NCBI GenBank assembly: GCA_018060985.1 | Contig: JAGOUZ010000001.1 | Coordinates: 21,057-85,056 of the forward strand | Source: Minisyncoccota bacterium | GTDB lineage: Bacteria > Patescibacteriota > Minisyncoccia > Phycocordibacterales > SBAW01 | DNA length: 64,000 nucleotides | Direction: 5' to 3' | Part shown: one piece after another, positions 8,784 to 49,204 of the stretch | How positions within the stretch are numbered: the stretch's first letter is position 1 | Layout: each line of letters starts with the position of its first letter | Made by a program: the position numbers and the translations under genes | Notes under the pieces: generated by a model | Databases searched by the model: none | The model's input: the letters and a program-made list of their open reading frames with translations, nothing else | Told to the model about the DNA's origin: nothing

Positions 8784-8786
8784 CTC

Positions 8787-9104: not shown

Positions 9105-9111
9105 AAATTTG

Positions 9112-10851: not shown

Positions 10852-10892
10852 CGAAGAGGGCGCCTCGGAGAAATCCAGGCGCCCTTTAACTT

Positions 10893-15663: not shown

Positions 15664-15685
15664 GCCCTCTCCTCTGCGCCGACGT

Positions 15686-21819: not shown

Positions 21820-22389
21820 TTGAACAACAAGGGAGTATACAACGTGAGCAAGATTCGCCTCCTTATCGCCTACTTCCATGCAGGCTTTATGGACCTTGCG
21901 GTGGGCGTCCTTCTGATAAACGCCCTTACTGCAGCATTCGGGATCCCGTTTGAATGGTGGCACCTACCCCTTGGTGCAGCCCTCACCGTGCTTCCGGACT
22001 TCGATATCTTCTGGCCGCTCCTGCGAACTGTGTTTGGCGGGACCGCACGCACCGAAGACCATCATAAGACATGGCTCCATTTCCCGATCGTGATGCTTCC
22101 TGCGATTGGACTCGTAGGCTATGCGCTCGGCGGATGGGAGTGGGCTACCATTACTGTGGTCGGCGTGCTCGCGCACTATATCCACGACGCTGCCACGATC
22201 AAAAACGGTGGCGTGTACTGGTTCTTCCGCATAGAACGTACGAGGTGGACAAACTCTGAAATACCGACAGGAACCGGAGAAGAATGGACAAGAAAAAACT
22301 GGCTGCAATGGAGCCAGTTGTCGGTGATCGAAACAACGATTGGAATATGCGCACTCTTAGGCGCCCTGGCCATCATCGCTTTGCGATGA
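21820..22389 (+). CDS. YdjM-like membrane-bound metal-dependent hydrolase (DUF457-like)
   Basis: polytopic membrane protein with His-rich motifs (HYIHD). Confidence 0.5.
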   Translation: MNNKGVYNVSKIRLLIAYFHAGFMDLAVGVLLINALTAAFGIPFEWWHLPLGAALTVLPDFDIFWPLLRTVFGGTARTEDHHKTWLHFPIVMLPAIGLVGYALGGWEWATITVVGVLAHYIHDAATIKNGGVYWFFRIERTRWTNSEIPTGTGEEWTRKNWLQWSQLSVIETTIGICALLGALAIIALR

Positions 22390-23386
22390 TGGCCTTTTTG
22401 TACGTATCTAGGTGTTCGAGCGCTATACCGGTGCCGCGTGCCACGCAAAACAGCGGGTCAGCAGCAACCGTCGCCTTAACACCCGTGCGGCGCAGCACCA
22501 GTTCTGGGAAGTTTCGAAGTTGAGACGTGCCACCGGTCATAATAATGCCGCGGTCAATAATATCAGCTGCAAGTTCAGGCGGTGTCTCTTGGAGCACGTC
22601 GCGAATGGCTTTGATTATCTCGCGCAGCTCTTTCCCCATACTTTTAACAATGTCGTTCGTTTTGAGCTCCATCGAGCGCGGCAGGCCGGTAATAAAGTCG
22701 CGGCCGCGCACGCTCATCACAATATCTTCCTCGACAGGCACGGCGGAGCCGATACCTATTTTTATATTCTCCGCCGTCTTGTCGCCTATCGCTAAGTTAA
22801 AAGATTTCTTCATATAGTCGGCAATCGCGTGGTCGAGCTTGTCTCCCGCACACTTAACCGACGTACTTGCCACAATGCCGCCAAGCGAAATAACCGCAAC
22901 GTCAGTCGTGCCGCCGCCAATGTCGACAACCATGTTGCCACGCGCCTCGTTAATCGGCACGCCCGCGCCAATTGCTGCGAGCACCGACTCTTTAACCACA
23001 TACGCGCTCCTAGCGCCGGCGCGCATTGCAGCCTCCACGACTGCGCGGCGCTCGGTCGAGGTAACGCCTGTTGGTACCGAGACCATTACTTCTGGTTTAA
23101 AAAGGCCGTACTTTGGCATCGCCTTGCGGATAAAGTAGCGAAGCATTGCTTCGGTTACGCGGTAGTCGGCTATAACACCGTCGCGCATTGGGCGGTAGGC
23201 CACGATCTCGTCTGGTGTGCGGCCGATCATCTCTTTAGCCTCCATCCCCACTGCCAAGATCGTTCTATCAAATTGAGATACGGCTACTACCGAAGGCTCA
23301 TTTAAAACCACGCCTCTCCCTGGCATAAAAACAAGAGTGTTTGCGGTGCCGAGGTCTATGCCGAGCTTTGGAGTAAAGAATGACAT
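22373..23386 (-). CDS. mreB: second MreB/actin-like paralog
   Basis: DLGTANTLVF, DIGGGTTDVAVI, MTGGTSQL; start trimmed to MSFFTPKLGIDLG. Confidence 0.85.
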   Translation of the reverse strand: MSFFTPKLGIDLGTANTLVFMPGRGVVLNEPSVVAVSQFDRTILAVGMEAKEMIGRTPDEIVAYRPMRDGVIADYRVTEAMLRYFIRKAMPKYGLFKPEVMVSVPTGVTSTERRAVVEAAMRAGARSAYVVKESVLAAIGAGVPINEARGNMVVDIGGGTTDVAVISLGGIVASTSVKCAGDKLDHAIADYMKKSFNLAIGDKTAENIKIGIGSAVPVEEDIVMSVRGRDFITGLPRSMELKTNDIVKSMGKELREIIKAIRDVLQETPPELAADIIDRGIIMTGGTSQLRNFPELVLRRTGVKATVAADPLFCVARGTGIALEHLDTYKKAIIAKR

Positions 23387-23485
23387 CGGAGCAATAATAC
23401 GTGAGAAGTGGTAACGAAACAATTATTTGACAATTTCAGACTTCGACGTATTCTGCATATTAGCAGTTCACCCTGGAGGAACGTT

Positions 23486-27444: not shown

Positions 27445-28416
27445 TTGGCATTTGCAGCGCTTTGTGCTATTACGAACGCGTATATTTACCAGTTGACTAC
27501 ATGGCTTATGATGTTTTTTACCGCGTTCAGCAACTCTGTGTTGATTAAAAATGTAGGGGCAGTAGTGACCGCACTCGCGCTTATCGCTGGGGCGTATACG
27601 GTTTCCTTGCCAGCCGCATCGGCGGAGGTAAATCCGACCGCAGGCGCTATGTGCTCATTCTTGGGCGGTATACTAACAGAAGATGGTTGTCAGATTGCAG
27701 GTACGGCTATTTGTATCCTGCTCGAGACTCACTCAGCAGAGTCAGTAGAAGCAGCACTTAACCTCTTCGGTATGACCGTGGATGATTTTGACTGCGCCGA
27801 AGAAGAAACTACGCCTCAGGACCACTGCTCAACCGTAGCCGGTGTTCAGACTGAAGAAGACACCTGTCCATCGCAAGCAGAATTAGACTGCACTACCAGG
27901 GGCGGCACCTGGAATTCTGAAACTGCCGTATGTACGCCTGCAAACAATGATGAAGGCGAAGGAAACGGAGACGGTGAAGGTTCCGGTGGTTCAGATACCA
28001 GTGGTACTACTACCCAAGGTGGTGGCTTAACTGGCGGCGGTTCTATGGGCGGAGGCGGCGGTTCTGGCGGCCAGGTCTTGGGTGCAAGCACCGACGATGT
28101 CTGCTCGACACCTCTTATCACCAGCTACCTGCGTTTTGGCCAGAAGAACGACTTTGTTCAAATGGTATTGCTGCAGGTCTTCCTAAGGAACGAGCTCGGA
28201 AGCAAACTCCTTATTACCGGTGAGTTTGATGCCGACACGAAGGCAGCGGTAGATCAGTTCCAAGTTAAATACTCAGGCGAGGTGTTGGCTCCGTGGGTGC
28301 CCTTTGGCCTCGAGTCCACAAGCACTCCAACGAGTTATGTGTACAAAACAACGAAGCGCATGATCAACAAGATCCACTGCGCAGCGCTCGATATTCCGAT
28401 GCCACAGCTTCCCTAA
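27445..28416 (+). CDS. secreted Gly/Thr-rich protein with C-terminal peptidoglycan-binding (PGBD-like) domain
   Basis: signal/TM, Cys-containing acidic region, poly-Gly linker, PG_binding_1-like C-terminus (LxxGxxGxxV...DGxFDADTKAAVxxFQ). Confidence 0.6.
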   Translation: MAFAALCAITNAYIYQLTTWLMMFFTAFSNSVLIKNVGAVVTALALIAGAYTVSLPAASAEVNPTAGAMCSFLGGILTEDGCQIAGTAICILLETHSAESVEAALNLFGMTVDDFDCAEEETTPQDHCSTVAGVQTEEDTCPSQAELDCTTRGGTWNSETAVCTPANNDEGEGNGDGEGSGGSDTSGTTTQGGGLTGGGSMGGGGGSGGQVLGASTDDVCSTPLITSYLRFGQKNDFVQMVLLQVFLRNELGSKLLITGEFDADTKAAVDQFQVKYSGEVLAPWVPFGLESTSTPTSYVYKTTKRMINKIHCAALDIPMPQLP

Positions 28417-28494: not shown

Positions 28495-29910
28495 TTACGG
28501 AAGTGCGGAAACAAATGTCGAGAGTGAGGCTGCGTCAGAGTTAACGCGCCAATCGCGTTCTTTGTTCTGGTTGAACCAGAGCCAACCCTTCACTTCTGGA
28601 TACTTGTAGAGCTGCACCGTAAGGAAGTCTTTAATCCAAGCTGCCTTGCCAGTACCAGCGGCCGTGGCCATAGAGAACAAGTAGATTGGCTTCTTGTACG
28701 TCTTAAGCTTGGCAAGAGGACCATCGAGTAATTGCGAGGGTGACCGCTCTTCCGTGCCGCCACCGAAGTTAAAGGCATCAATCCCAACATAATCCACCAC
28801 GTCATCTCCCGGGTAAGCCAGTTCAAACTGGTTAGCTGGCGTGTTTGGTACCGAGCCCGCATTTGGTGCCCATCCAAACTTTACATTCGGCACATCCTTG
28901 AAGAAGTTATGGATGTAGCGATACGCAGCTTTATGTTTTTCTGCTGTATTGGTGCCAATAGTAATGCCCCATGGATACCAGTTGCCATTAAACTCTGAGT
29001 ACGGAATAAGAATGACCGGACCACCGTATGCCTTAGCCCCCTCGGCAAACGTCTTAAAGTAACTATCGAGTTTACCGGCAAGCACCGAGTCATACGAGTA
29101 TTCTGGCTGAGAGAATGCATCGCGCTTAAAGTCGCTAGCCTCCCAGAACAGCACCATCGTTCTCCCCTGGTCGCGGATGCGCCCTGCATAGTACGAAGGG
29201 AACGTGGTTTCATTGCCCCAGTGTACGAACACCATTTCCATCTCAGGCTTCTTTTTTGTAAGGGCCTCAAACTCGGTCATAGACGAGGCGTGCCAACCTG
29301 TATACGCGCCCCACTTCACTCCTGCCGGCATCTTGCCTGTACTGCTTGCCACTGATGTGGAAGTAGTTGCAACGGGCGTTACTGGCGGCTTAACCGGTGT
29401 CGTCGTAGCGGTTGAGGTTGCTACAGGCGGCTTCGGTGATACGACAGGCGTTGTCGTAGCCGGTTTAGTTGAAGGCGTGGTTGTTGCAACAGGAGCCGGC
29501 GCTGTTGGTGCTGGTGCAGGTTTTGTTCTGCATTCAGGAACGGCAACAGAGACCTCGGTCGAGTACACGAGACTTCCTTCTTTCTGCGCAATAATTCGAT
29601 ACTGAAACTTCATCGCGCCGTAGTCGCTCTTGAAGCGCTTATCTACATGCGATGTTGTTTTGATCTGACTATCAAGAATGCCGGACCACGGCGCGCTCGC
29701 TACATTCTTTCGTTGAATTTTATAATAGAGGGCTTTATCTACCGAACCCCAAGACAAACTAACTTGTGGTAAACCATTTACACATTGCACTGTTGCTTGA
29801 TTCTGCGTGAACGTCTGCGGTGTTTCGACTCCCAGGGCTTTATCTGCGTTACTGAATAATCCGAAAACAATACCAATAAATCCTACCGTAATCAGTAATT
29901 TCTGTATCAC
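28495..29910 (-). CDS. secreted clan GH-A glycoside hydrolase (GH26/GH5-like) with Thr/Pro-rich linker and N-terminal beta-sandwich
   Basis: signal peptide; (beta/alpha)8-type motifs incl. VHWGNE; long PT-rich linker. Confidence 0.5.
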   Translation of the reverse strand: MIQKLLITVGFIGIVFGLFSNADKALGVETPQTFTQNQATVQCVNGLPQVSLSWGSVDKALYYKIQRKNVASAPWSGILDSQIKTTSHVDKRFKSDYGAMKFQYRIIAQKEGSLVYSTEVSVAVPECRTKPAPAPTAPAPVATTTPSTKPATTTPVVSPKPPVATSTATTTPVKPPVTPVATTSTSVASSTGKMPAGVKWGAYTGWHASSMTEFEALTKKKPEMEMVFVHWGNETTFPSYYAGRIRDQGRTMVLFWEASDFKRDAFSQPEYSYDSVLAGKLDSYFKTFAEGAKAYGGPVILIPYSEFNGNWYPWGITIGTNTAEKHKAAYRYIHNFFKDVPNVKFGWAPNAGSVPNTPANQFELAYPGDDVVDYVGIDAFNFGGGTEERSPSQLLDGPLAKLKTYKKPIYLFSMATAAGTGKAAWIKDFLTVQLYKYPEVKGWLWFNQNKERDWRVNSDAASLSTFVSALP

Positions 29911-29959
29911 CTATAGATAATCCCCTATTGCCGAACGCCTGACAACCCTAGACAATGAA

Positions 29960-32900
29960 CTAATTCATTGATGCAACACCCTCTTGCACTGTAATAACGT
30001 TAATTGGCACGGTTTTTATATAATTCACAGTTGTCTGAAGAAAGGCCGGTGTAGCAGTAAGTGGATCTGTAGACAAATCTGTATCTATCTGGTGGAACAT
30101 GAGGATGAGCCATGTCTTATCTGCCATTGCCTGCTCTACCCATCCCTGCACATCTTCGAGGGTCGTAGTGGTATTTATCTGCTGAATTTTAAGCGCGTAC
30201 TTGTCGGTCGTCTTAGTGTTGTATCCACGCTCAACGCCGCGTGCAGCGATATAGCCACCATTGCGAGTTACGTTTTGAACATCTTGATCGTACTCTCCGT
30301 ACGGATATGCGATTGTCGTTACTGAGTCAACGCCCATGGCAAGAATGTCTGTGCGAGAATTTACGATTTCATCAATTTTCTCTTCCTGTGTAAGAAGCGG
30401 CAAGTGTGCGTGGGTCTTAGTGTGACCGCCTATCTCATGACCATTCGCTTCCATCTCAAGAACTTGCGACTGGCTCATAAAGGTCTGCTCGGTCTTGAGC
30501 GAGTAGTTATCAACCGTGAGCGAGCCGACAGCTGCAAGTGAGTGGAACATGGTCATTGAGATTGCTCCTACAGGCGGTGTAACTGTGCGGGTAAGGGTTT
30601 GCCAAGTACCATCCGTTGATGGCAACCATGCCAAGAATACGTATTGAGTCGTGCCGTCACTCATGGTGTAGCGCATCAAGGTCTCTGACGGCGCAGTTGT
30701 TTTATATTGATCAGAAATGGTGTAAACATGGCCCTCTACTATCGGCACATCAGCAAAGAACCACTTAGCGTCGCCGTTCGTATAGCTAGACATTTCGATC
30801 TGCGCAGCACTTACACCATTTACGCCTTCTGCTGGGTAGGTAAACACGGTGGTGTTAGTGCCCCAGTTACCACGAGACCAATTGAGTGGATTGCTACCGG
30901 TGCCAAAAGTCTCAAGTGATGGGTTCTGTATAAGTTCGTCTGAAGCTCCCTGCAAGACTTCATTGCTGGTGATATAAAAGACGCCCTTAAGGTTGCCTGA
31001 GTTTAGGATCGGGTATGCCTGGCTGTAATGTGAGTACCAACCGTCATCGAACGTAAATGAGATCATGCCCGAATTGAATGTTCCTTCAAGACCCGCTGTA
31101 AGCGCGTAGTCATCGACTTCAAGCCAACCGACTTTGTTCATGCTGTGGAATAGTGTCATGGACACAACGCCAGTTGGGATAACGAGTACATGTGCATCTG
31201 CCACCCACTCTGCAGAAGCAGCCGGATCGCCGAGACCGATGTATACAACGCTGCCATCAGTCTTGGTATAACGGACCGTAAGATTGGTCGATACGCTTGA
31301 TTTATATTTGTGTCTAAGGGTATACGTCTTTCCGGCGGTTACTGGAGCGTCCGTAAAGTACCACTTAGCATCGCCGTTGGTGTAGCTGGTGAGCTCGATG
31401 CGAGCACCCTTAGCTCCATCTACGCCCGCTACCGGATAGGTAAAAACAGGAGTGTTAGTACCCCAGGCGCTGCGTGCCCAGTTTTGAGGATTGCCGCCGG
31501 TTCCTGCTGTCTCCAGCGATGCGTTTGGTATAAGGTTTGAGACAGAAACCTGGTTATTTACTTCGACATTCACCGTGGCAGATGGGGTGATATTTCCTGC
31601 ATGGTCTTCTGCGCGGGCACTCAAGGCATGAGAGCCGTTGGCAACTGTTTTAGTGTCCCACGTAAAGTCATAGGGAGCCGCCGTATCTACGACGCCTATT
31701 GGAGTACCGTCGAGGAGCAGAGTTACACCGGTCACACCGACATTGTCTGCTGCAGTTACTGAAACCGTAGTAGTACCCACGAGCGTGGCGCCTTCTGCCG
31801 GAGATGCGATAGAAACGGTCGGCGCTTCGGTATCGGCAGTAGCGGTTGGATCAGCAAGTACAAAGTCATCAACTTCAAGGAAGCCAACTGAGTGCACCAC
31901 ATGAAAGACCGTGAGTGACACCGCGTTAAGAGGAGCAGTTATGGAGTATGCATTTTGAGACCATGTAGCAGATGCGGGAGCATTACCCAAAAACTGATAT
32001 TGTGTTGCGCCACCCGTGAGCGTGTAGCGCGCAAGCACCTCTGTGGTCGTATTGCTTCTATAGACGTGATCAAACGAGTAGGTCTTGCCGCCAGTTACCG
32101 GAACTTCAGCAAAGTACCACTTTGCATCGCCGTTGGTATAGCTCGTAATTTCTACACGTGCTGACTTAGCAGACGTTGGACCAGCTACTGGGTAGGTAAA
32201 GGCGCGGTTGTTGGTGCCCCATCCGCCGCGGAGCCATGAAGTCGGGTCGCCGGAAACAGCTGCGGATTCAAGTGACGGGTTAACGATGAGGTTTGAGTTC
32301 GTTGGAGGGGTTACTGAGTTGTCTACGTTAACCGTTATGGTGTGTGTTGAATTGTTGCCTGACGGATCGTGCGTCGTTGCCTTAATAGTGTGAGAACCAT
32401 TTCCAACGGTAGTCGTATCAAAATTATAGAGATATGGTGCATCGTGGATCTGTCCAGTTACTGGAATGCCGTCTACCGCATAGAAGATATACGTAACGGC
32501 TGTGTCGTCAGTAGAAGACGCCGTAATGCCAACGGTGCCATGAATGGTCTGGCCAGCGAGCGGATTAGTGATCTCTACAATCGGCGTATTGGTTTCTGAC
32601 GGAGTGCCGGAACCAGAGACGTACATTTGAGCATCATCGATTTCGATATAGCCAACTGCACTGATGAGGTGGAAGAACGTAACGTGAGTTGCGTTAGCTG
32701 GCGGCGTAAAGGTATGCGAAACGGTATTCCAAGTCGTTGATGGCTGAATTTCTTTTACGAGTCCAAAGTAGTGGAAGCTACCGTCGGCAAGAGTGTACTG
32801 ACCGATGATGTCGGAAATGGTGTTTGAGCGGTAGTGGTCAGAATAGGTGTACTGCGTACCTGGAGTTACAGCAATTTTAGTAAAGGCCCATTTTGCATCG

Positions 32901-35674
32901 CCGGTGCCAGTCGGAGGGGTCGGATATGCCGTGATGTTAGTGCGAAGTGCCTTGCCGCCGTTGTAGCCAGTAATTGGGTACTCATATGAGCGAGTATGAT
33001 TACCCCAACCACCCTGAGTCCAGCCTTGTGGTGCAGTACCCACTTGGGTCTCCATGTCCCCGTTTTGAATAAGATTTGTTGGAGTAGCTTGATTAGACAC
33101 AGTAACGGTAATTTGCGGAGCAGTACCAGTGTTGCCTGCAATGTCGCGTGCGCGTGCAGAAATAGTGTGGGTACCATTTGTAAGAGTCGTGGTATTCCAC
33201 GCAAATTCATACGGAGCCACGGTGTCTTCGGCGCCTACATCTGTACCATCAACAACAAGCGTGACACCAGCAACGCCGCCAGAGTCCCCTGCAGTAACGG
33301 CAACGGTCGTCGTGGTGCTTACAGTGCTTCCGTTAACTGGAGAATCAATAACAAGAAGAGGCGCCGTAGTATCTACGCTATTGTCGATATGTGTAATTGA
33401 AAAGTTGTCGGTGGTGAGTGAGCCAACTGCGTAGATTTCATGCCAAACGGTGAGAGATTCTACCCCAGCTGGAATAGTGACCGTTCTTTCAATTTTGGTT
33501 GGCGTGCCAACCGCAGGAACAGCACCGAGGTCGAGGTACTGGTACGTACCATTAGAGAGGCCGAGCTGCGCGTAAATCGACGTAACCACCGTTGCGGTGT
33601 AGTACTCGGTGTACACATATTGCGCTCCCGGAATAACGCTTATGGGGCTGAAGTACCACTTAGCGTTTCCGTCCACGTGATAATCCATGCTGAGTTGGAG
33701 GCCCTTAGAGCCTTCAAAGCCGGTGACCGGATACGTAAAGGTAGGATTGTTGAGACCAAAGTTTCCGCGAAGCCAGTTGAGTGGGTTGCCGCCAGGACCG
33801 TCTGCAGGAATTTCAACTGACGGGTTCTGAATAAGATTTCCCTGAACACCTGAACCGTTGTCGAGGTACAGGTTGGTGCTTGCAGTGCTAATGAGGCCTG
33901 CTGAGTCGGTTACCGTGAGAATAATTTCTGTGTATACGTCTGCTGAGCTGTGGTCAGGCGCAATAAACCAAGGATTTTTTGTATTAGTAAAATCCTGCTC
34001 AATGTGAGTATGGGTGTTGTGATGGAGAATTACCTGCCAATGAAATGCTGACGCTGGAAGAGTGCCGTCTTCACTGTCTACACCTGTACCCGTAAGCTGG
34101 ATAACATCGTTCGGCGTGTAAAGTGAGCCTGATGCCGGGCTTGTAATAGATGCGGTCGGCGCCTGATTACCGGCTGTAATCGTGATCGTCTTTGATGCCG
34201 ATGCGCCATGCGCATCAGTGAGCTTCATCACAACATTGTAGGTGCCGTTGGTAGCAAATGTATGGGATGGATTTGCCGTGTTCGAGAATGATCCGTCGTC
34301 AAAATTCCACTCGTAAGTAAGCGCATCGTTGTCCGGGTCGTATGAACCGAAGCTCGTAAATGACACCTGGAGCGGCGTAAGACCAGAAGTCGGATTACCG
34401 GAGATCTCAACAATCGGACGACGGTTACCAGTCGTGTGGGTGATGCGGTTCAACTCGCCCGTGTAAATAGAAAGGTAGTACACATTACCATCGGGACCAG
34501 TCGTTATATCCACCGGACCATCAGGGTTGTCCATAAAGTCATGCACGGAAACAAAGTTGCCGTTTTGGTCGAGCACTATGCGCTTGATCCAGTTCTGAGC
34601 GTAGTCACCAAAAAACAGGCTTGTGTCGTATGTGTCTGGATACGCATCGTTGCTTGGGAATGCACCTGCAGTTACTGAGCCCGCGCCAAACTGGTTGTGC
34701 GGATAGTCGTAGAGCGGAGTCGTGTTAGACGAGGTACAGCCGTGAGAGGTAAGACCGGTACCTTCCCAACATGGCCAGCCGTAGTTTGCACCAGCAACTA
34801 CTTTATTTATTTCCTCACGATTGCTCCAGCCCACATCGCCAGCAAACAAGGTGCCTGTAGTAGGATTAAAGTTAAAGCGGAATGAGTTACGTACGCCAAG
34901 GGCAAATACTTTAGAGCGGTTTGAGTTCGTACCATCATAAAATGGGTTTGCATCTTCTGCAGGACCATTTGTTGGTGCAGTGCCGTCACGGTCAATGCGG
35001 AGCACCTTGCCTGCAAGTGAATTTAGATCCTGTGCGCGGAGCGAACGTGGGTCCGCATAGTCAAAGTTTGCGCCGTCGCCCAAGGTTGCGTAGAGCATGC
35101 CATCTGGTCCAAAGCGAAGACCTCCAACACTGTGACTTGGAGAGTCCGAAGGAATGCAGTCTGCAGTAACTGGATAGTCCTCGCAAGACGGTGTTGCTGC
35201 ATTACCGCCAACGGTACCAACAAGGATCACCTTGCTTGACTCAAGGGCTGTATCTCCTACTACGGTAACGCGCACGATGCGGCCTGTCTTTTCGCCGCCG
35301 ACGTCAGTACCTGGGGTGTTTTCAAATGTGTATGACAAATAGAGATACCCTGTTTCAGAAAAGTTCGGATCAGCAGCAATGCCAAGAAGGCCGCGGTCGC
35401 CGAAGGTGTTGATGTCAGAAAGCCCTATAACTGGCGTCGGAAGCAGTACGCCGTTTTTAACTACCCGAACGGTGCCGCCTTTTTCTGCAATAAAGATGCG
35501 GCCGTCGTTGGCAAAGGTCATCGCGGTAGGAATAGTCAAACCCCCTACGACGGTCTCTGTCTCAAAGCCCGGCTCACTTATAGCAGCCTGTGCTACGTTA
35601 GAAGGCAAAAGGCCCGTTATGATAACGAGTGAGAAGAACGTTCCGGTGACGAATTTTTGAATAGAAGTGTTCAT
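29960..35674 (-). CDS. giant multidomain surface protein (1904 aa): signal peptide, PQQ-dependent sugar dehydrogenase-like beta-propeller, PKD, 5x CBM4_9-like modules alternating with 4x Ig-like domains, C-terminal polysaccharide deacetylase (NodB) domain split by a CBM insertion
   Basis: uninterrupted 5.7-kb ORF; propeller motifs; PKD (TYEWNFDDGS); recurring CBM starts such as NLIQNGDMETQVGTAPQGWTQGGWG, each with a GDAKWYF-type motif; NodB motifs TFDDG ... HTKTH ... YPYG ... LxH with about 170 aa inserted between MT1 and MT2. Confidence 0.85.
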   Translation of the reverse strand: MNTSIQKFVTGTFFSLVIITGLLPSNVAQAAISEPGFETETVVGGLTIPTAMTFANDGRIFIAEKGGTVRVVKNGVLLPTPVIGLSDINTFGDRGLLGIAADPNFSETGYLYLSYTFENTPGTDVGGEKTGRIVRVTVVGDTALESSKVILVGTVGGNAATPSCEDYPVTADCIPSDSPSHSVGGLRFGPDGMLYATLGDGANFDYADPRSLRAQDLNSLAGKVLRIDRDGTAPTNGPAEDANPFYDGTNSNRSKVFALGVRNSFRFNFNPTTGTLFAGDVGWSNREEINKVVAGANYGWPCWEGTGLTSHGCTSSNTTPLYDYPHNQFGAGSVTAGAFPSNDAYPDTYDTSLFFGDYAQNWIKRIVLDQNGNFVSVHDFMDNPDGPVDITTGPDGNVYYLSIYTGELNRITHTTGNRRPIVEISGNPTSGLTPLQVSFTSFGSYDPDNDALTYEWNFDDGSFSNTANPSHTFATNGTYNVVMKLTDAHGASASKTITITAGNQAPTASITSPASGSLYTPNDVIQLTGTGVDSEDGTLPASAFHWQVILHHNTHTHIEQDFTNTKNPWFIAPDHSSADVYTEIILTVTDSAGLISTASTNLYLDNGSGVQGNLIQNPSVEIPADGPGGNPLNWLRGNFGLNNPTFTYPVTGFEGSKGLQLSMDYHVDGNAKWYFSPISVIPGAQYVYTEYYTATVVTSIYAQLGLSNGTYQYLDLGAVPAVGTPTKIERTVTIPAGVESLTVWHEIYAVGSLTTDNFSITHIDNSVDTTAPLLVIDSPVNGSTVSTTTTVAVTAGDSGGVAGVTLVVDGTDVGAEDTVAPYEFAWNTTTLTNGTHTISARARDIAGNTGTAPQITVTVSNQATPTNLIQNGDMETQVGTAPQGWTQGGWGNHTRSYEYPITGYNGGKALRTNITAYPTPPTGTGDAKWAFTKIAVTPGTQYTYSDHYRSNTISDIIGQYTLADGSFHYFGLVKEIQPSTTWNTVSHTFTPPANATHVTFFHLISAVGYIEIDDAQMYVSGSGTPSETNTPIVEITNPLAGQTIHGTVGITASSTDDTAVTYIFYAVDGIPVTGQIHDAPYLYNFDTTTVGNGSHTIKATTHDPSGNNSTHTITVNVDNSVTPPTNSNLIVNPSLESAAVSGDPTSWLRGGWGTNNRAFTYPVAGPTSAKSARVEITSYTNGDAKWYFAEVPVTGGKTYSFDHVYRSNTTTEVLARYTLTGGATQYQFLGNAPASATWSQNAYSITAPLNAVSLTVFHVVHSVGFLEVDDFVLADPTATADTEAPTVSIASPAEGATLVGTTTVSVTAADNVGVTGVTLLLDGTPIGVVDTAAPYDFTWDTKTVANGSHALSARAEDHAGNITPSATVNVEVNNQVSVSNLIPNASLETAGTGGNPQNWARSAWGTNTPVFTYPVAGVDGAKGARIELTSYTNGDAKWYFTDAPVTAGKTYTLRHKYKSSVSTNLTVRYTKTDGSVVYIGLGDPAASAEWVADAHVLVIPTGVVSMTLFHSMNKVGWLEVDDYALTAGLEGTFNSGMISFTFDDGWYSHYSQAYPILNSGNLKGVFYITSNEVLQGASDELIQNPSLETFGTGSNPLNWSRGNWGTNTTVFTYPAEGVNGVSAAQIEMSSYTNGDAKWFFADVPIVEGHVYTISDQYKTTAPSETLMRYTMSDGTTQYVFLAWLPSTDGTWQTLTRTVTPPVGAISMTMFHSLAAVGSLTVDNYSLKTEQTFMSQSQVLEMEANGHEIGGHTKTHAHLPLLTQEEKIDEIVNSRTDILAMGVDSVTTIAYPYGEYDQDVQNVTRNGGYIAARGVERGYNTKTTDKYALKIQQINTTTTLEDVQGWVEQAMADKTWLILMFHQIDTDLSTDPLTATPAFLQTTVNYIKTVPINVITVQEGVASMN
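30424..33817 (-). repeat. five diverged tandem module repeats (about 600-770 bp period) inside the giant gene
   Basis: nucleotide motif ccactt(a/t)gc(g/a)tcgccgtt recurs at about 30761, 31361, 32117, 32887, 33656 (encodes GDAKW(Y/A)F). Confidence 0.6.
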
Positions 35675-35680
35675 ACTGTA

Positions 35681-36007
35681 TTAGTGGCCGACGTATACAA
35701 TCTCAGTGCTGCTAATCAAGTCCTCCACTGCCTGACCGATATATGAGTACGAATGCGTGATGTAGTCGGCGTTTGAGGTGTCGTTCACTGCTTCCTGGAC
35801 GATGTAGATAGCGGTTGATGCGGTAAAGATAAAAAAGCCGCCGATCATAGTGAAGGCGAAGATAGCAGAAAGAGACTCATTAAACGTAAGAATCTTTGTG
35901 AAGAATGAGCGAACCGGTGTCGTATATACGGGGTTTATAAGGGAAAGAACCGACCCAACAAGGACGATACTGACGCTTATAAGAAATGAGATTCCTGAAA
36001 ATGGCAT
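35681..36007 (-). CDS. small polytopic membrane protein, candidate IcaD/PgaD-like synthase partner
   Basis: 108 aa, 2-3 TM helices, stop-start abutting the GT2 gene (36007/36009). Confidence 0.5.
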   Translation of the reverse strand: MPFSGISFLISVSIVLVGSVLSLINPVYTTPVRSFFTKILTFNESLSAIFAFTMIGGFFIFTASTAIYIVQEAVNDTSNADYITHSYSYIGQAVEDLISSTEIVYVGH

Positions 36008-36008
36008 A

Positions 36009-37049
36009 TTATGAAAGTATCTTGCGACGCTCTGGGTGGAACCAAACCATGTTCTTCTTGCGTAGCACTACCTCTTTAACGAACTGCTCGAGAAACACGT
36101 AAGCGTTTACGAAGAGAAGGACGATATAGGTCGGAGAGTACAGAAGTAGATCCCAACGTTTGCGGGCAATAGCGCCATACACGCCAAGCGTAAGGAGGAA
36201 GGCGAAGTACGGAACAACAAAGTAGAAAAAGAGAACGATGTTAAGGAACGGCATAAGGAAGAGGAGGCCTGCAAAGAAAAAGCCTTCAATATAGATAAGG
36301 GCAAAGGTAAAAGCGTTTGCCGGGTTCTGGAGCACGCGGAAGTGCTTGCGGAGGTTCTGCCAACCGCCGCAGTACCAGCGACGCATCTGGTTAATGTATG
36401 AAGAAAGAGTAGCGGGGTCCTGGGTATATACAATCGCCTTGCGATCATAAATAATCTTCTGCTCCTGAGCATGCAGCTTGTAGGTAAGGTCGAGATCTTC
36501 TGTAAGGGTGTCGTGATCGAAAGTAATCACAGAGCGGAAAAGTTCGGTGCGGAATGCACCGGCGCAACCTGGGATCACGAAGATAGCGTGGAGAAACGCT
36601 TGAGCTTGTTTGTAGAGGTCCTGACCAAGAAGATAGTCGAGCTCGCGACATGCAGTAAGCCAGTTGTGAGAGAGACTCTTTACATAGCCGCCCATTGCGG
36701 CAACTTCAGGATCTTGGAAGTCGATTTCAACGCGCTCAATAAAGTGACGGTCAATAATAGTATCGCCATCGGTTGCAACAACCACTTCGCTAGAAATGTG
36801 CTGTAAGCCGATCTGCTGCGCATGACTTTTGTTGCCGGTTGCAACCGGAATAGTGACAACTTTAATTTTATTACCAAAAGTTTTAAGCACGTCAGCCGTC
36901 TTGTCGGTTGATCCGTCGTTAATGACAACGACCTCATCAGCAGGACGAGTCTGATCGAGACATGACTGAACACAAGCCGCAACAGATTTTTCCTCGTTGT
37001 GGCAAGGGATAAGTATCGAAATAGTTATATTTTTAGGGCTTTTTACCAT
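36009..37049 (-). CDS. processive family-2 glycosyltransferase (IcaA/PgaC/NodC/cellulose-synthase-like)
   Basis: D (DGSTD), DxD (DGD), GxxxFR, TED and Q(R)xRW (QMRRW) motifs; C-terminal TM helices. Confidence 0.85.
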   Translation of the reverse strand: MVKSPKNITISILIPCHNEEKSVAACVQSCLDQTRPADEVVVINDGSTDKTADVLKTFGNKIKVVTIPVATGNKSHAQQIGLQHISSEVVVATDGDTIIDRHFIERVEIDFQDPEVAAMGGYVKSLSHNWLTACRELDYLLGQDLYKQAQAFLHAIFVIPGCAGAFRTELFRSVITFDHDTLTEDLDLTYKLHAQEQKIIYDRKAIVYTQDPATLSSYINQMRRWYCGGWQNLRKHFRVLQNPANAFTFALIYIEGFFFAGLLFLMPFLNIVLFFYFVVPYFAFLLTLGVYGAIARKRWDLLLYSPTYIVLLFVNAYVFLEQFVKEVVLRKKNMVWFHPERRKILS

Positions 37050-40372: not shown

Positions 40373-40447
40373 TCCGCGGTAGCTCAATGGTAGAGCAGCT
40401 CCCTGTTAAGGAGTTGGTTGTAGGTTCGAGTCCTACCCGCGGAGCCA
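40373..40447 (+). tRNA. tRNA-Asn (GTT), CCA encoded
   Basis: acceptor TCCGCGG/CCGCGGA, D-arm AGCTCAATGGTAGAGC, anticodon loop CTGTTAA, T-arm GTAGGTTCGAGTCCTAC; TATAAT at about 40350. Confidence 0.9.
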
Positions 40448-42016
40448 GTTGGGATTAGCGTCGCCAAAAGCGACGCTTTCCCGTTTAGGAGAGCCACCTT
40501 TAGGAGGTTCGAACCGGTCGTTTTTTCGTCTTACCGAATTTGAGACGAGAATCATCGGCAAAAGCGCAATATCGGTGTCAATGCTGATTATTTTGTCTTT
40601 CAGGAGGAGGTTCGAACCGAGGGCGGATAAAAAGACCTTTCGGGCATGCTGGCCCCGTTCGGTGAAGGCTTCTCTGGCGTCGCTTGCGAACGTGAGCACC
40701 TTGTCGGCCGTCTGCAGCCAACTGTCCACCCGGGCGTCGGTGTCATTCAAAAGTTCGTGGAGTTTTGCTTTCTCCTGATTTATCTCCGACTTCTTTCGTG
40801 CAAATTCTTCTTCGCTTATTTCTCCCGAAGCTCGCATGTCGATGAGCGCGTCGAGCTTCTTTACGCATGCCTCGTAGTTCTGTTGCTGGTTGGCAAGAAT
40901 CGCATTGCGGTCAGCGGCCTCCCGACCATTCTCGTTCTGCAGCCACTTCATTGCCCACTCGTGGAAATCCTCTGGTGGCTTGACCCGGCCAAGAGTATCC
41001 TCGATCTGTTTGTCCAGCTCCTTCACCTCGATGCATTTCTGCTTGCAGGGACCTTTGCGTTTCGTGCAGTGGTAATAAATATATCGGTGGATGTTGCCGT
41101 TCTTATTCCTCTTGGTCTTGTGCTCGGCCGTGACCATGCATCCGCACTCTCCACAGCGGATCATGCCCGTGTAGGCAAAGCTGTGCTCCTCGGGCTTTGG
41201 CTTGCTGCCACGGCCTAGAAGCGCCTGCATGCGGTCGTACTCCTCGCGTGTGATCATTGGCTCGTGCTTGCCCTTGTGCCAGTTGCCCGAGCCTTGCGGC
41301 CACTCGAACCAGCCGTAGTAGAAGGGATTGTAGAGCACGCGGTAGAAACCGCTTCGCGCGAGCTTCTTTAAGCCCCACTGGTTTACTGCGATCTCATGCA
41401 CCCTCGGCGTTGTGTATGTGCCGCTGAGGAGCATGTCGAACATTTTTCGGATGATCGGAAACATCTTCGGGTCTTTGCGTATCGTCTTGAATCCTTTCAT
41501 TTTGTCCGGCGTGTTCATGTAACCGATTGGAGCCGGGCCTGGATGCCAGCCCATCTCTACTTTGCGCCGGAGGCCGCGCTTTACGTCGACGCCTTTGTTG
41601 TCGTTCTCCAATTTCGCCTGGCTGCAGAGGAGGTTGAGAAGGAATTTGTCGTTCGGCGTATTTTTGTAAGCCTGTCCGGGCGTGCGAATGTCCTGAAGCC
41701 TGTTCTGGTCCATGAGATAGACCAGATAGCCGGTGTCGACGGAATTGCGCGAGAGGCGGTTCGGGTGCCAGGCGATGATGCCTTCGGCTTCGCCCTTTTC
41801 GATGCGCTTAATCATCGCGTTGAAGATCTCGCGCCCGGGCGCTTTGGCCGAGTACGATTCTTCGAGGCGCTCCACCACATGGAGCTTCTCTCTTTTTGCG
41901 AGTGCTTCCAATTCGCTCTTTTGCGAGTCTATCGAAAGTACCTGTCTATCTTCTTGTTCGGACGATTTGCGAGCGTAGAGGAAGTACTTGTGCTTTTGCT
42001 GTACTTCCTGGTTCAT
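40433..42016 (-). CDS. large serine recombinase (resolvase/invertase N-domain + recombinase domain + zinc ribbon)
   Basis: catalytic region YARKSSEQEDRQVLSIDSQ, recombinase domain, zinc ribbon CGECGC...YYHC...C, 527 aa; 3' end overlaps tRNA-Asn 3' end. Confidence 0.85.
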   Translation of the reverse strand: MNQEVQQKHKYFLYARKSSEQEDRQVLSIDSQKSELEALAKREKLHVVERLEESYSAKAPGREIFNAMIKRIEKGEAEGIIAWHPNRLSRNSVDTGYLVYLMDQNRLQDIRTPGQAYKNTPNDKFLLNLLCSQAKLENDNKGVDVKRGLRRKVEMGWHPGPAPIGYMNTPDKMKGFKTIRKDPKMFPIIRKMFDMLLSGTYTTPRVHEIAVNQWGLKKLARSGFYRVLYNPFYYGWFEWPQGSGNWHKGKHEPMITREEYDRMQALLGRGSKPKPEEHSFAYTGMIRCGECGCMVTAEHKTKRNKNGNIHRYIYYHCTKRKGPCKQKCIEVKELDKQIEDTLGRVKPPEDFHEWAMKWLQNENGREAADRNAILANQQQNYEACVKKLDALIDMRASGEISEEEFARKKSEINQEKAKLHELLNDTDARVDSWLQTADKVLTFASDAREAFTERGQHARKVFLSALGSNLLLKDKIISIDTDIALLPMILVSNSVRRKNDRFEPPKGGSPKRESVAFGDANPNWLRG

Positions 42017-46232: not shown

Positions 46233-47525
46233 ATGTCCAAGACACAATCCCCAGGTCTCACCGAGATAATTAAGCGCGACGGCTCAAGAGTTCCTTTTGA
46301 TAAGAAGAAGATCGTTATTGCTGTCGAGAAGGCCATGCGGGCTGCTGGGGAGTACGCGGAACATGCACCGGATATTGTCGCGGACGCGGTTGTGAAAACG
46401 CTTGCCGAAAAAAAGAAAGCGGACGACAGCTTCATTCCTTCAGTGGAGGGCGTACAAGATGAGGTCGAGCGAGTGTTGATGCTTGAAGAATTTCCTACTA
46501 CAGCAAAATCGTACATACTCTATCGCCAAGAACATGCGCTCCTACGGAAACGAGATATTTTCAAAAAGCGCATTAACCTTAAGCCGTACGAATATCCGGA
46601 ACTTTTAGAGTATGTCGATGCGATTCGTCATTCCTATTGGATACACACCGAGTTCAACTTCACGAGTGATATTCAGGACTTCAAGGTACACGTGACGCCT
46701 GCCGAGCGCACCGCAATCAAGAACGCGATGCTCGCAATCGCACAAATCGAGGTCTCGGTGAAAACATTCTGGGGGAATATCTATCATAAGCTACCGAAGC
46801 CGGAGATCGGCAATGTGGGCTACACGTTCGCGGAGAGTGAGGTACGACACCAAGATGCGTATGCCCATCTTCTTGAGATACTTGGGTTGAATCACGAGTT
46901 TGAAAAAATAAAGGAGATGCCAGCCATTCTGAAGCGTGTGAACTATCTTGAGAAGTCAATACAGCATGCGAAGAGCGACGACAATCGCGACTATGCGCAG
47001 TCCATTCTCCTTTTCTCACTCTTCGTCGAACATGTGTCGCTATTTTCGCAGTTCCTTATCATCATGGCGTTTAACAAGCATAAGAACATCTTCAAAGGAA
47101 TCTCGAATGTGATCGAGGCAACTTCAAAAGAGGAGCAAATACATGGTCTCTTCGGTATCGACATCATCAACATCATCAAACAGGAGCACCCCGAATGGTT
47201 TGACGACGCGTATAACGAAGCCATTATTGAATCGTGTCGTGAGGCGTACGAGGCGGAGAGTGCGATTGTTGATTGGATTTTCGAGGATGGCGAGCTTGAA
47301 CATATTCCCTCTGCGGTTGTGAAGGAGTTCATTAAAAACCGCTTTAACAACTCACTCTCTTCCATTGGTCTGCCGCGCATCTTTCCGACCGATGCAAAAC
47401 TGCTCGATAAAACCGAATGGTTCGACGATGAAGTTATCGCAACCAAGCATGGCGATTTCTTCGTGAAGCGCTCCATCAACTACAACAAACGCAGCAAGAG
47501 TATTACTGAGGATGATCTTTTTTAA
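46233..47525 (+). CDS. nrdB: class I ribonucleotide reductase beta subunit with N-terminal ATP-cone
   Basis: ATP-cone (IIKRDGSRVPFDKKKI...AKSYILYRQEHA) fused to ferritin-like R2 (AESEVRHQDAY, EEQIHG) with C-terminal EDDLF tail. Confidence 0.8.
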   Translation: MSKTQSPGLTEIIKRDGSRVPFDKKKIVIAVEKAMRAAGEYAEHAPDIVADAVVKTLAEKKKADDSFIPSVEGVQDEVERVLMLEEFPTTAKSYILYRQEHALLRKRDIFKKRINLKPYEYPELLEYVDAIRHSYWIHTEFNFTSDIQDFKVHVTPAERTAIKNAMLAIAQIEVSVKTFWGNIYHKLPKPEIGNVGYTFAESEVRHQDAYAHLLEILGLNHEFEKIKEMPAILKRVNYLEKSIQHAKSDDNRDYAQSILLFSLFVEHVSLFSQFLIIMAFNKHKNIFKGISNVIEATSKEEQIHGLFGIDIINIIKQEHPEWFDDAYNEAIIESCREAYEAESAIVDWIFEDGELEHIPSAVVKEFIKNRFNNSLSSIGLPRIFPTDAKLLDKTEWFDDEVIATKHGDFFVKRSINYNKRSKSITEDDLF

Positions 47526-47533
47526 TTCAACAT

Positions 47534-49204
47534 ATGTACTGGCTCAATGAAAACAGTAGGACGTTTCTCGCTAAAGGATACCTTCGTACCGGAGACAGCC
47601 CCGAAGCTCGCATCAGATTTATCGCTAACCGAGCCCAAGAAATACTTGGCATCGAAGGATTCGCCGACAAGTTTTACGAGTACATGTCACGCGGCTACTA
47701 CTCGCTTGCAACACCGGTGTGGGCGAACTTTGGTCTGCGCAAAGGTCTCCCGATCAGTTGCTTCGGCTCTTACATCGGCGACACCATGGGAGACATACTC
47801 TTTACACAAGCCGAGGCGGGAATGATGAGTAAGTTTGGTGGCGGCACATCCGGCTATTTTGGTGCTCTGCGTGGACGCGGCGCACCAATTACTGACAATG
47901 GTGTTTCGTCTGGCTCCGTGCATTTCATGCGTCTCTTTGAGAGCGTCGTGAATGTCGTATCACAAGGAGCAACACGGCGTGGGCACTTCTCCCCCTATCT
48001 TCCCATTGATCACCTGGATATCGAAGAGTTCCTCGAGATTGGCACCGAAGGAAATCCTATTCAAGAACTCACGCACGCAGTATGTGTAAGCGATGAATGG
48101 ATGAAGCAGATGATCGCAGGTGATGCGGCGAAGCGTGCAGTCTGGGCTAAGGTGCTGCAACGCCGTTCGCAGATGGGCTACCCGTACATATTCTTTACCG
48201 ATACCGTAAATAACAACACGGTCGATGTGTACAAAGATAAAGGGCTTCGCATCCACGCGAGCAATCTATGCAGCGAAATCGCCCTGCCCGCAGGTGCGGA
48301 ATGGTCATTCGTGTGCGATCTCTCGTCGCTCAACCTCCTTCACTTCGAGTTGTGGAAGGACACGGATGCGGTTGAGACGCTCGTGTATTTCCTTGATGCG
48401 GTCATGACCGACTTTATCGGTAAGCTCGAAGAAATGCGCGACTCGGAGTCGAGAGAACACAGACTGGCGTTTCAGTTTATGGAGCGAGCATACAACTTTG
48501 CCGTGGCGAACCGCGCACTTGGCGTTGGCGTACTCGGTTGGCACTCGCTCTTGCAGAGCAAGATGCTTTCGTTTGAGAGCATGGAAGCAGCAAAGCTCAA
48601 TGTTCAAATCTTCAAGACGATCAAAGAGCGCGCCTATGCGGCATCCGCAGAGCTCGCAAACCTGTACGGCGAGCCAGAGGTTCTTAAAGGATATGGTCGC
48701 CGCAATACCACGCTCATGGCGATTGCTCCGACGACATCGTCAGCGTTCATTCTCGGGCAAGTTTCGCAGAGCATCGAGCCGGTATGGTCCAACTGCTACG
48801 TGAAAGACATCGACAAAATGAAAGTGACGATCAAAAATCCATTTCTTGAAAAGCTGCTCGAAGAGAAAGGAAAAAATGACAAAGAGACATGGCACAGTGT
48901 CCGCGATAATGACGGCTCGGTACAGCATCTTCCGTTCCTGACGCAAGAAGAAAAGGATGTTTTTAAGACGTTCGCTGAGATCGACCAGTACGCTGTCGTC
49001 GGACAGGCAGCGGTACGGCAGCTGTATATCGACCAGAGTCAGTCACTCAACCTCATGATCAATCCCAAGACTCCAACCAAAGATGTGAACGCGCTATACA
49101 TCGAAGCATGGAAGCAGGGCGTGAAGTCGCTTTATTATCAACACAGCATGAACGCAGCACAGACTCTCAACAGGAAGAAGCTCTGCGTTAATTGCGAAGC
49201 CTAA
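47534..49204 (+). CDS. nrdA: class I ribonucleotide reductase alpha subunit lacking ATP-cone
   Basis: active-site NLCSEI, C-terminal Cys pair (CVNCEA), 556 aa, no N-terminal cone. Confidence 0.85.
   Translation: MYWLNENSRTFLAKGYLRTGDSPEARIRFIANRAQEILGIEGFADKFYEYMSRGYYSLATPVWANFGLRKGLPISCFGSYIGDTMGDILFTQAEAGMMSKFGGGTSGYFGALRGRGAPITDNGVSSGSVHFMRLFESVVNVVSQGATRRGHFSPYLPIDHLDIEEFLEIGTEGNPIQELTHAVCVSDEWMKQMIAGDAAKRAVWAKVLQRRSQMGYPYIFFTDTVNNNTVDVYKDKGLRIHASNLCSEIALPAGAEWSFVCDLSSLNLLHFELWKDTDAVETLVYFLDAVMTDFIGKLEEMRDSESREHRLAFQFMERAYNFAVANRALGVGVLGWHSLLQSKMLSFESMEAAKLNVQIFKTIKERAYAASAELANLYGEPEVLKGYGRRNTTLMAIAPTTSSAFILGQVSQSIEPVWSNCYVKDIDKMKVTIKNPFLEKLLEEKGKNDKETWHSVRDNDGSVQHLPFLTQEEKDVFKTFAEIDQYAVVGQAAVRQLYIDQSQSLNLMINPKTPTKDVNALYIEAWKQGVKSLYYQHSMNAAQTLNRKKLCVNCEA

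Follow-up and report, generated by a model that had tools for sequence, protein, structure and literature searches.

The systems closest to the one described here are the staphylococcal icaADBC and Escherichia coli pgaABCD loci, in which a membrane-bound family 2 glycosyltransferase (GT2) is accompanied by a small membrane protein and a deacetylase; the staphylococcal product is poly-N-acetylglucosamine (PNAG, or polysaccharide intercellular adhesin, PIA), and the small partner, IcaD, is a two-helix protein of about 100 residues. In Streptomyces, CslA-GlxA-CslZ brings together a synthase, an extracellular copper oxidase and an endoglucanase. Streptomyces MatB, which makes PNAG, unites in a single chain an IcaA-like GT2, a transmembrane (TM) helix and an extracellular deacetylase of carbohydrate esterase family 4 (CE4) (PMC5972031). 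Here we analyse a four-gene cassette encoding a GT2, a small membrane protein, a giant secreted protein and a protein related to glycoside hydrolase (GH) family 26, found at positions 28495-37049 (minus strand) of a 64,000-nucleotide stretch of contig JAGOUZ010000001.1 from a Minisyncoccota bacterium, hereafter the window. The four genes probably form a single cassette for a synthase-dependent, partly deacetylated surface polysaccharide or exopolysaccharide, most likely one based on N-acetylhexosamine (HexNAc). The cassette is conserved in Paceibacteria-type bacteria of the candidate phyla radiation (CPR, Patescibacteria), a group that holds a large share of bacterial diversity, has tiny genomes and is thought to live attached to other cells. 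To our knowledge, the surface molecules of these bacteria are almost unknown. Because the cassette is kept at ~55-65% identity across many Paceibacteria lineages, with more than 1000 GT2 homologues, it is a strong candidate for a core surface-glycan pathway.

A sequence-only reading of the window had proposed an ica/pga-like exopolysaccharide locus of four co-directional minus-strand genes in a small-genome organism. All four open reading frames (ORFs) were confirmed: the GT2 gene (36009-37049, 346 residues), the gene of the small membrane protein (35681-36007, 108 residues), that of the giant secreted protein (29960-35674, 1904 residues) and the GH26-like gene (28495-29910, 471 residues). The organism also fits: a database search matched the GT2 at 100% identity to a protein from a 'Candidatus Pacebacteria bacterium' metagenome-assembled genome. 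The GT2 and small ORFs are 1 nucleotide apart at a TAA-T-ATG junction, the small ORF is followed after 6 nucleotides by the giant ORF, and 49 nucleotides separate the latter from the GH26-like gene. Upstream of the GT2 gene lies a 229-nucleotide gap and then a divergent trypsin-like peptidase gene, and on the 3' side of the GH26-like gene a convergent gene ends 78 nucleotides away. Given these tight spacers and the divergent and convergent neighbours, 28495-37049 is arranged as a single transcription unit would be. For comparison, 79 loci were fetched from species-representative genomes, 41 of which hold a GT2 orthologue at 50-96% identity; L081, L083, L086 and L088 were among further loci added later, and synteny counts were restricted to the 33 loci in which 3 kb or more of sequence follows the GT2 gene.

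The GT2 consists of a cytoplasmic GT-A domain, a QxRW interface helix and three C-terminal hydrophobic helices (residues 243-269, 271-296 and 299-328), as delineated with Pfam, NCBIfam and an AlphaFold model. The full set of processive-synthase motifs that the sequence-only reading had listed is present (D45 in INDGSTD, D94-G-D96, T183-E-D185 and Q221-M-R-R-W225), and these D, DxD, TED and QxRW motifs are invariant in an alignment of 69 homologues. Pfam assigns the protein to Glyco_tranf_2_3 (9e-29), and the top NCBIfam model is PgaC_IcaA (TIGR03937; 138.2 bits, model positions 43-371 of 407), followed by MftF (78 bits), NodC (71 bits), the XrtG-associated GT (68 bits) and CelA (34 bits). When the GT2 family profile was aligned with E. 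coli PgaC using hhalign (probability 99.85, E 6.6e-31, 31% identity), GT2 residues 1-245 corresponded to PgaC 68-316; since the alignment starts at PgaC residue 68, the GT2 is without the N-terminal 67 residues of PgaC. The AlphaFold model (pLDDT 93, pTM 0.90) shows the three C-terminal helices as the only ones in the membrane, with no N-terminal TM pair. In a Foldseek search of the PDB, the top matches were the hyaluronan synthases (HAS) XlHAS1 and CvHAS (E ~3e-18, query TM-score (TMq) 0.77-0.83 across the whole query), followed by BcsA (3e-14) and yeast Chs1 (1e-13). By its motifs and by its fold of GT domain, interface helix and membrane helices, the protein belongs to the class of processive membrane-integrated synthases; it groups with these and not with the dolichyl-phosphate sugar synthases. 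Because its score falls far below every equivalog cut-off, we place it in a distinct family of the PgaC/IcaA/NodC-like branch and do not regard it as a PgaC orthologue.

Database searches returned 1068 GT2 homologues, the best 120 of which are 56-100% identical, most of them with 336-370 residues. The nearest relatives from outside the CPR (Agrobacterium, Gemmatimonadaceae and others) are 28-34% identical and again have PgaC_IcaA as their best model; a diguanylate cyclase gene neighbours one of them and WecB (UDP-GlcNAc 2-epimerase) another. The long homologues of 393-473 residues were considered as possible fusions of GT2 with the small protein, a possibility ruled out by the finding that their extra length is a soluble N-terminal extension.

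The 108-residue protein encoded next begins with a conserved helix (MPFSGISFLIS...), which a basic loop connects to a second TM helix; the tail is acidic. It had been described beforehand as an abutting, polytopic membrane protein; the abutment is as described, and the two hydrophobic helices make it a hairpin. It is the product of a real gene, as it has homologues in L028 (82% identity) and L037 (44% identity) and its N-terminal motif is found in all related loci. It matches no Pfam or NCBIfam family and, by BLASTP, shows no similarity to E. coli PgaD (E 0.39). The motif, which we refer to as TM1, was defined by an anchored alignment as M-x-P-[FP]-x-G-[LIV]-[ST]-[FL]-x-[IV]-[HNS] and occupies codons 1-24 (35936-36007, minus strand). 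In all 41 related loci the gene that follows GT2 opens with M-x(1-3)-P-[FP]-x-G-[LIV]-[ST]-[FL]-x-[IV]-[HNS]-x-x-I, and TM1 is also present in the four later loci named above. Among the 40 loci sequences of the anchored alignment, the Gly is found in 38 and the Ser/Thr in every one. The distance from GT2 to the next ORF ranges from -4 to +33 nucleotides (median ~4) in the 32 related loci where the start of that ORF was read directly from the motif scan, and its frame is not fixed. This variation of frame among loci argues for translational coupling and not read-through; a read-through or frameshift event that would fuse GT2 to TM1 was rejected on the same ground, since both spacer length and frame differ from locus to locus.

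TM1 is found in several protein contexts. It is a stand-alone micro-ORF of 27-41 residues in L036, L038, L040 and L086 (in the last at L086 7369-7494, with the sequence MSLVPFIGISMTVHLVIIAVQQSRKALAFLTTARVKKEVIA), and in most loci, the window included, it lies within a hairpin protein of 96-271 residues. Elsewhere the deacetylase itself opens with it. The fusion partner is a giant GSDH-CBM-CE4 protein in L015, L016, L017, L031 and L088 (CBM, carbohydrate-binding module); L021 and P0296 have a CBM-CE4 protein in this role, and L009, L014, L018, L019, L023, L027 and L083 a DUF2334-type deacetylase (Pfam DUF2334, 2e-8 to 8e-17). At least 14 loci in total carry a TM1-deacetylase fusion. One DUF2334 protein bears PG_binding_1. 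Since two unrelated deacetylase families share both the slot behind the synthase and the helix, TM1 would appear to dock the modifying enzyme to the synthase, and the small partner is best read from these sequences as a docking element between synthase and deacetylase. With a cluster of basic residues behind the helix and catalytic domains that have to face the outside of the cell, the positive-inside rule predicts an N-out, loop-in, C-out topology. The G-[LIV]-[ST]-[FL] segment resembles a prepilin-peptidase site; a prepilin-like signal was rejected because the leader has no basic residues and there is no Glu+5, and was further excluded by the basic cluster after the helix and by the second TM or signal-like segment that comes next. 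TM1 micro-ORFs will often be overlooked by ordinary gene callers.

The giant protein carries the deacetylase. Polysacc_deac_1 (PF01522) matches it in two stretches (7e-22, 78.2 bits against a gathering threshold of 23.1), in agreement with the NodB deacetylase proposed from sequence. The first part of the CE4 (NodB) domain (residues 1528-1578, 30941-31093) holds motif 1 (T1541-FDDG), and the second part (residues 1729-1904, 29963-30490) holds motif 2 (H1751-TKTH), motif 3 (AYPYG) and motif 5 (LMFH1861). Inserted between motifs 1 and 2 is a CBM-like module (module 5, residues 1579-1728, 30491-30940), recognised by repeat search and by comparison with L021, in which the same CE4 domain is uninterrupted and has no CBM insert. 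Across 24 orthologues, motifs 1, 2 and 5 keep their metal-binding and catalytic residues. The best solved relatives of the domain are chitin deacetylases, with weak E-values, and the database members of the CBM-CE4 family, of which there are at least 949, are all generically named.

The module inserted in CE4 is the last of five repeats of ~150 residues that are interspersed with three Big_7 Ig-like domains. The other four, found by internal repeat search, are module 1 (residues 612-762, 33389-33841), module 2 (866-1019, 32618-33079), module 3 (1127-1275, 31850-32296) and module 4 (1379-1527, 31094-31540), and the Big_7 domains, identified by Pfam and repeat search, cover residues 764-852 (33119-33385), 1022-1111 (32342-32611) and 1276-1365 (31580-31849). 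An AlphaFold2 model of module 4 is a beta-jelly-roll (pLDDT 97.4), for which Foldseek returned CBM70 (hyaluronan), CBM16, CBM4, CBM11 and CBM22 with E-values of 1e-8 to 1e-6, as well as the CBM-like domains of phage tailspikes; Pfam gave a weak CBM_4_9 match on the giant protein (0.0033). Multiple CBMs had been anticipated, and the modules are predicted by the model to have a CBM4/9/16/22-type fold, from which the ligand cannot be read. At the other end of the protein, a signal peptide (residues 1-30, ending AQA before an Ala, recognised in the sequence of the 29960-35674 gene) precedes a six-bladed propeller of the soluble glucose dehydrogenase (sGDH)/Asd type (residues 31-415, 34430-35584; Pfam GSDH 2.4e-49, 168.9 bits) and a PKD domain (residues 417-500, 34175-34426; PKD_4 4.6e-19). 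The propeller's sequence matches in the PDB are 2ISM, 3A9G and sGDH. It retains the catalytic-His motif SHSVGGLRFGPDG, with H181 in SHSVGG aligned to the His of 'LHSGG' in 2ISM; family score and catalytic His together assign it, at the level of sequence, to PF07995 (sGDH/Asd, the pyrroloquinoline quinone-dependent sugar dehydrogenases). The propeller is present in 14 of the 33 related loci.

The fourth gene encodes a signal or anchor segment, an Ig-like domain (residues ~35-128), a Pro/Thr linker (~129-190) and a catalytic domain (191-471), as delimited by Pfam and homology. A secreted GH-A hydrolase had been proposed. The protein is indeed a member of GH26 by Pfam (PF02156, 5e-14, 52.8 bits against a gathering threshold of 20.2), and its (beta/alpha)8 domain (28498-29340) is 34% identical to Clostridium thermocellum CtLic26A (E 3e-33); what the proposal had not foreseen is that the nucleophile Glu of GH26 is replaced by Ser. 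Presumably, E109 and E222 are the catalytic pair of CtLic26A, with E222 as the nucleophile. Aligned with E109 is the acid/base E306 (nt 28993-28995), a Glu kept in 120/120 database homologues and 23/23 loci sequences; aligned with E222 is S413 (nt 28672-28674), and Ser occupies this position in all of the same 120 homologues and 23 loci. His257 of CtLic26A is likewise replaced by an invariant Asn, and many further active-site positions are invariant across the GH26-like homologues. PDB entry 2cip has Gln at the E222 position and the remaining CelH entries have Glu. The replacement is no sign of decay, since the Ser is fixed across a family that spans at least 182 sequence clusters. With Ser at the nucleophile position and the acid/base Glu retained, we favour neighbouring-group catalysis by the 2-acetamido group of the substrate, a reading that fits a HexNAc polymer. 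A role in binding or transglycosylation is a further possibility. A literature search found no published account of a GH26 protein without its nucleophile. Neither this replacement, nor the CBM-interrupted CE4 domain, nor the N-terminal sGDH-like propeller had been part of the sequence-only reading.

Co-occurrence of these genes in relatives, on which the proposal of a polysaccharide locus turned, is widespread. A deacetylase gene lies downstream of the GT2 gene in 28 of the 33 loci (CE4 in 22, DUF2334 in 8, both in 2), and of the remaining 5, four are on contigs that end within the giant gene and one (L029) is without a deacetylase. The GH26-like gene is found within 10 kb of the GT2 gene in 22 of the 33 loci, on either side and either strand. 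The reverse link is looser: of seven CBM-CE4 homologues looked up, four stand behind a cassette-type GT2, one is near a different GT2 and a GH16 gene, and for two or three the nearest 7-8 kb hold no GT2 gene. The locus with the different GT2 is L084, where two CE4 proteins precede the GH16 gene. At L082, a CBM-CE4 homologue (7001-10988, 33% identity) is followed 40 nucleotides on by a gene of the chitosanase family GH46, with no GT2 within 7 kb, and in L088 a GH18 gene lies ~4 kb beyond the GH26-like gene. The GH46 and GH18 neighbours hint at a family that works on GlcNAc or GlcN polymers; they also make clear that the secreted enzymes are not confined to the cassette. GH46 and GH16 partners were sought in all loci and the window, and none was found beyond the two distant loci. 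Sortase genes adjoin the cassette in L086 and L088 and large CLIPPER/SdrD_B/SpaA-like repeat proteins are encoded in L083 and L086, flanks that suggest a shared cell-surface neighbourhood.

Several observations weigh against a single cassette for a deacetylated HexNAc polymer. The sugar and linkage of the polymer are predicted from homology that lies far under all equivalog cut-offs: the GT2 scores 138.2 bits with PgaC_IcaA, for which the curated cut-off is 422.3, and the CE4 domain scores 24.8 against 321.9 bits with the PgaB model and 22.2 against 248.35 with IcaB. CE4 motif 3 is without its canonical Arg (AYPYG here, [AVI]-Y-P-[YN]-G in orthologues); another conserved Arg lies ~25 residues downstream. 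The fusions seen join TM1 to the deacetylase and never to the GT2. A scan for consensus promoters and terminators gave fewer sites than shuffled sequence and was uninformative. In L082, L085 and L087, homologues of the giant/CE4 and GH26-like proteins have no GT2 gene within 7-8 kb. Finally, the closest solved relative of the GH26-like enzyme is a beta-1,3-1,4-glucanase, and the CBM fold matches binders of beta-glucan, xylan and mannan as well as a hyaluronan binder.

Both parts of this last point are what one would expect if the GT2 made a neutral beta-glucan, cellulose-like or of mixed linkage, on which the GH26-like enzyme and the CBMs act while the deacetylases work elsewhere, on peptidoglycan or O-acetyl groups, in an arrangement comparable to CslA-GlxA-CslZ. 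The homology of the hydrolase to the lichenase CtLic26A (E 3e-33) and that of the CBM fold to the glucan and xylan binders of CBM4, 11, 16 and 22 would then be taken at face value, the oxidoreductase-type propeller of the giant protein would have a counterpart, and the PG_binding_1-like domain protein that is repeatedly nearby, together with the DUF2334 protein that bears PG_binding_1, would point to peptidoglycan. A glucanase, however, needs the nucleophile Glu, and Ser is found there in 120/120 homologues. Moreover, the GT2 scores four times as high with PgaC_IcaA as with CelA, the same synthase-adjacent helix anchors two different deacetylase families, and a scan of the cassette genes and their immediate neighbours revealed no acetyltransferase. 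We judge a neutral beta-glucan unlikely.

A second possibility is that the genes are adjacent without sharing a pathway, the giant CBM-CE4 and GH26-like proteins attacking foreign polysaccharides (host wall, chitin or glucans) in the service of episymbiosis and the GT2 with its micro-partner doing an unrelated envelope job. The CBM-CE4 and GH26-like homologues of L082, L085 and L087, which have no GT2 within 7-8 kb, and the GH46 chitosanase gene beside the first of them are what such a division of labour predicts, and the large CBM-CE4 family (at least 949 matches) carries only generic annotation that would accommodate it. Seen from the synthase, the association is far tighter: every GT2 orthologue has TM1 within a few nucleotides, 32 of the 33 informative loci have a deacetylase gene or a contig-truncated giant gene next, and TM1 is fused to deacetylases in at least 14 loci. 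Independent functions are for these reasons improbable.

It is very unlikely that the GT2 is a lipid-directed enzyme, that is, a glycolipid or polyprenyl-phosphate sugar synthase and not a polymer synthase. A weak Glyco_transf_21 match (1.6e-6), the presence of PcManGT among the fold matches (TMq 0.65) and the membrane part, with three C-terminal helices and no N-terminal TM pair, are in keeping with such a role; set against them are the invariant TED and QxRW motifs, the fold match to HAS, BcsA and Chs over the whole length, and the undecaprenyl- and dolichyl-phosphate transferase models, whose match is confined to residues ~5-105. The NodC/NodB logic that the sequence-only reading had also entertained, with short chito-oligosaccharides made and deacetylated as diffusible signals, draws on NodC being the third-best NCBIfam model for the GT2 (71 bits) and on the NodB fold of CE4, and is very unlikely to be right given scores far off the cut-offs (GT2 70.7 against 550 bits with NodC, CE4 21.9 against 240 bits with NodB), a deacetylase that here has CBMs and a signal peptide and is secreted or membrane-anchored on the outside, where NodB is cytoplasmic, and a hydrolase and five CBMs that make little sense for oligomers.

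The partly deacetylated HexNAc polymer remains the preferred reading, and the order of events that it implies can be sketched as follows. The GT2, with its catalytic domain in the cytoplasm, would polymerise a UDP-sugar and thread the chain outward as PgaC/IcaA and the hyaluronan, chitin and cellulose synthases do; the most probable substrate is UDP-GlcNAc or a different UDP-HexNAc. From its conservation and its fusions, TM1 is predicted to pack against the reduced helix bundle of the GT2 and, because in relatives the deacetylase starts with this helix, would serve to place that enzyme at the channel exit. There the CE4 domain of the giant protein, whose domains and motifs are in place, would strip part of the acetyl groups, while the five CBM modules and Ig spacers would hold the chain and the sGDH-type propeller may act on sugar ends, by oxidation or by binding. 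The GH26-like enzyme would trim or release the polymer, its residues suggesting that the 2-acetamido group of the substrate assists catalysis. The product may be a cationic, sticky surface glycan by which an episymbiotic cell attaches.

New features of the cassette are the minimal synthase without an N-terminal TM pair, the signature helix common to interchangeable deacetylases, the CBM insert in CE4, the sGDH propeller and the invariant Glu-to-Ser replacement at the GH26 nucleophile. We found no published description of the cassette in the literature on CPR/Patescibacteria surface polysaccharides and on these enzyme families. In its boldest form, which we offer tentatively and consider doubtful as a whole, the interpretation would be of a new, CPR-wide glycan machine in which a minimal HexNAc synthase is completed by a helix of ~30 residues that tethers interchangeable deacetylases at the channel exit, with the first GH26 (clan GH-A) lineage to trade its nucleophile (Glu to Ser) for substrate-assisted catalysis, and with a product that is the adhesive attaching Paceibacteria to hosts or particles. 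The 346-residue processive synthase could be a tractable model for channel-forming GT2s with helper helices. The signature helix that links synthase and modifying enzyme and the large GH26-like family with an invariant Ser for its nucleophile are leads for enzymology, and the cassette provides concrete genes to test for a CPR surface glycan.

The GC content of the cassette (~0.50) is that of the remainder of the window, and the genes around it include def-fmt, hpf, MurA, two copies of MreB, MreC, penicillin-binding proteins (PBPs), a Mur ligase and aminoacyl-tRNA synthetases; with such housekeeping and cell-wall neighbours and window-like GC, the cassette is no obvious island. No second copies (paralogues) of its genes were found in the rest of the window. 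The gene convergent with the GH26-like gene (27445-28416, plus strand) encodes a secreted protein of 323 residues with a Cys-rich region, a Gly-rich linker and a C-terminal domain of ~130 residues that weakly matches PG_binding_1 (E 0.01). This domain also lies less than 10 kb from the GT2 gene in 12 of the 41 related loci, and for that reason may be a loosely associated cell-wall-binding accessory. The two MreB paralogues and MreC are encoded at 14953-16741 and 22373-23422 (minus strand) and the two PBP transpeptidases at 7266-8783 and 12963-14642; with MurA and the Mur ligase, they amount to a complete gene set for rod shape and peptidoglycan, here in a CPR bacterium.

Other parts of the window have features of their own. 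The 3' end of a tRNA-Asn gene (40373-40447, plus strand) is overlapped by the gene of a 527-residue large serine recombinase (40433-42016, minus strand), and AT skew drops to -0.25 and -0.20 over 40-44 kb of the window; these signs probably mark an integrated mobile element or the remnant of a prophage. The lysyl-tRNA synthetase encoded at 10893-12437 (minus strand) is of class I (PF01921, 2e-87), where bacteria usually have class II. At 46233-49204 (plus strand), the small subunit of ribonucleotide reductase has an N-terminal ATP-cone (residues 11-102) and the adjacent 556-residue large subunit has no ATP-cone match, an uncommon arrangement.

How, then, does the cassette compare with the described systems? 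As judged from the sequence models, no component is an equivalog of a Pga, Ica or Nod protein. The ica/pga likeness proposed at the outset stands as a working logic, with PgaC_IcaA as the best model and a conserved gene order, and does not extend to equivalogs or to the small protein, which is unlike PgaD. With staphylococcal icaADBC the cassette shares the order of GT2, small two-helix membrane protein and extracellular CE4 deacetylase. The GT2 has PgaC_IcaA as its best family model, yet scores 138 bits against a cut-off of 422 and has no N-terminal TM segment; the small protein is like IcaD in size and two-helix layout only and matches no IcaD/PgaD model; and the CE4 domain (22 against 248 bits for IcaB) is split by a CBM and embedded in a 1904-residue multidomain protein. 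IcaC has no counterpart, and the GH26-like gene and the sGDH propeller are added. With E. coli pgaABCD the cassette shares a homologous synthase core and the logic of a synthase, a small inner-membrane partner, and deacetylase and hydrolase activity. The PgaA porin is missing, which is unsurprising where there is no outer membrane, and the hydrolase is a separate GH26-like protein in place of the GH153 domain of PgaB. PgaD is unrelated to the small protein, and PgaC is 67 residues longer than the GT2 at its N-terminus.

The likeness to MatAB, which we draw from the description of MatB and not from its sequence, is that an IcaA-like synthase is coupled to CE4 through a membrane helix. The window cassette reads as MatB split after the GT2, and several CPR relatives combine the TM element and the deacetylase in a single protein; unlike MatB, the CPR synthase is always a separate polypeptide, the anchor has a conserved motif of its own and the deacetylase may be of the DUF2334 type. 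The best structural matches of the GT2, namely HAS (CvHAS, XlHAS1), BcsA and Chs1, have in common with it the GT domain and membrane helices at 13-19% identity, but are ~150-450 residues longer (target TM-score (TMt) 0.27-0.59), and the 346-residue protein lacks an equivalent of part of their helix bundle. The GH26-like protein resembles the GH26 lichenase domain of CelH, CtLic26A, over the whole catalytic domain (34% identity) and shares Glu109 and many active-site residues with it, whereas Glu222 has become Ser and His257 Asn, and its genomic partners are a HexNAc-type synthase and deacetylases in place of cellulases. Finally, like CslA-GlxA-CslZ, the cassette has a glycoside hydrolase and, outside the cell, an oxidoreductase-type domain to go with its processive GT2; its redox module, however, is an sGDH/PQQ (pyrroloquinoline quinone)-type propeller fused to the deacetylase and not a galactose-oxidase-like copper enzyme.

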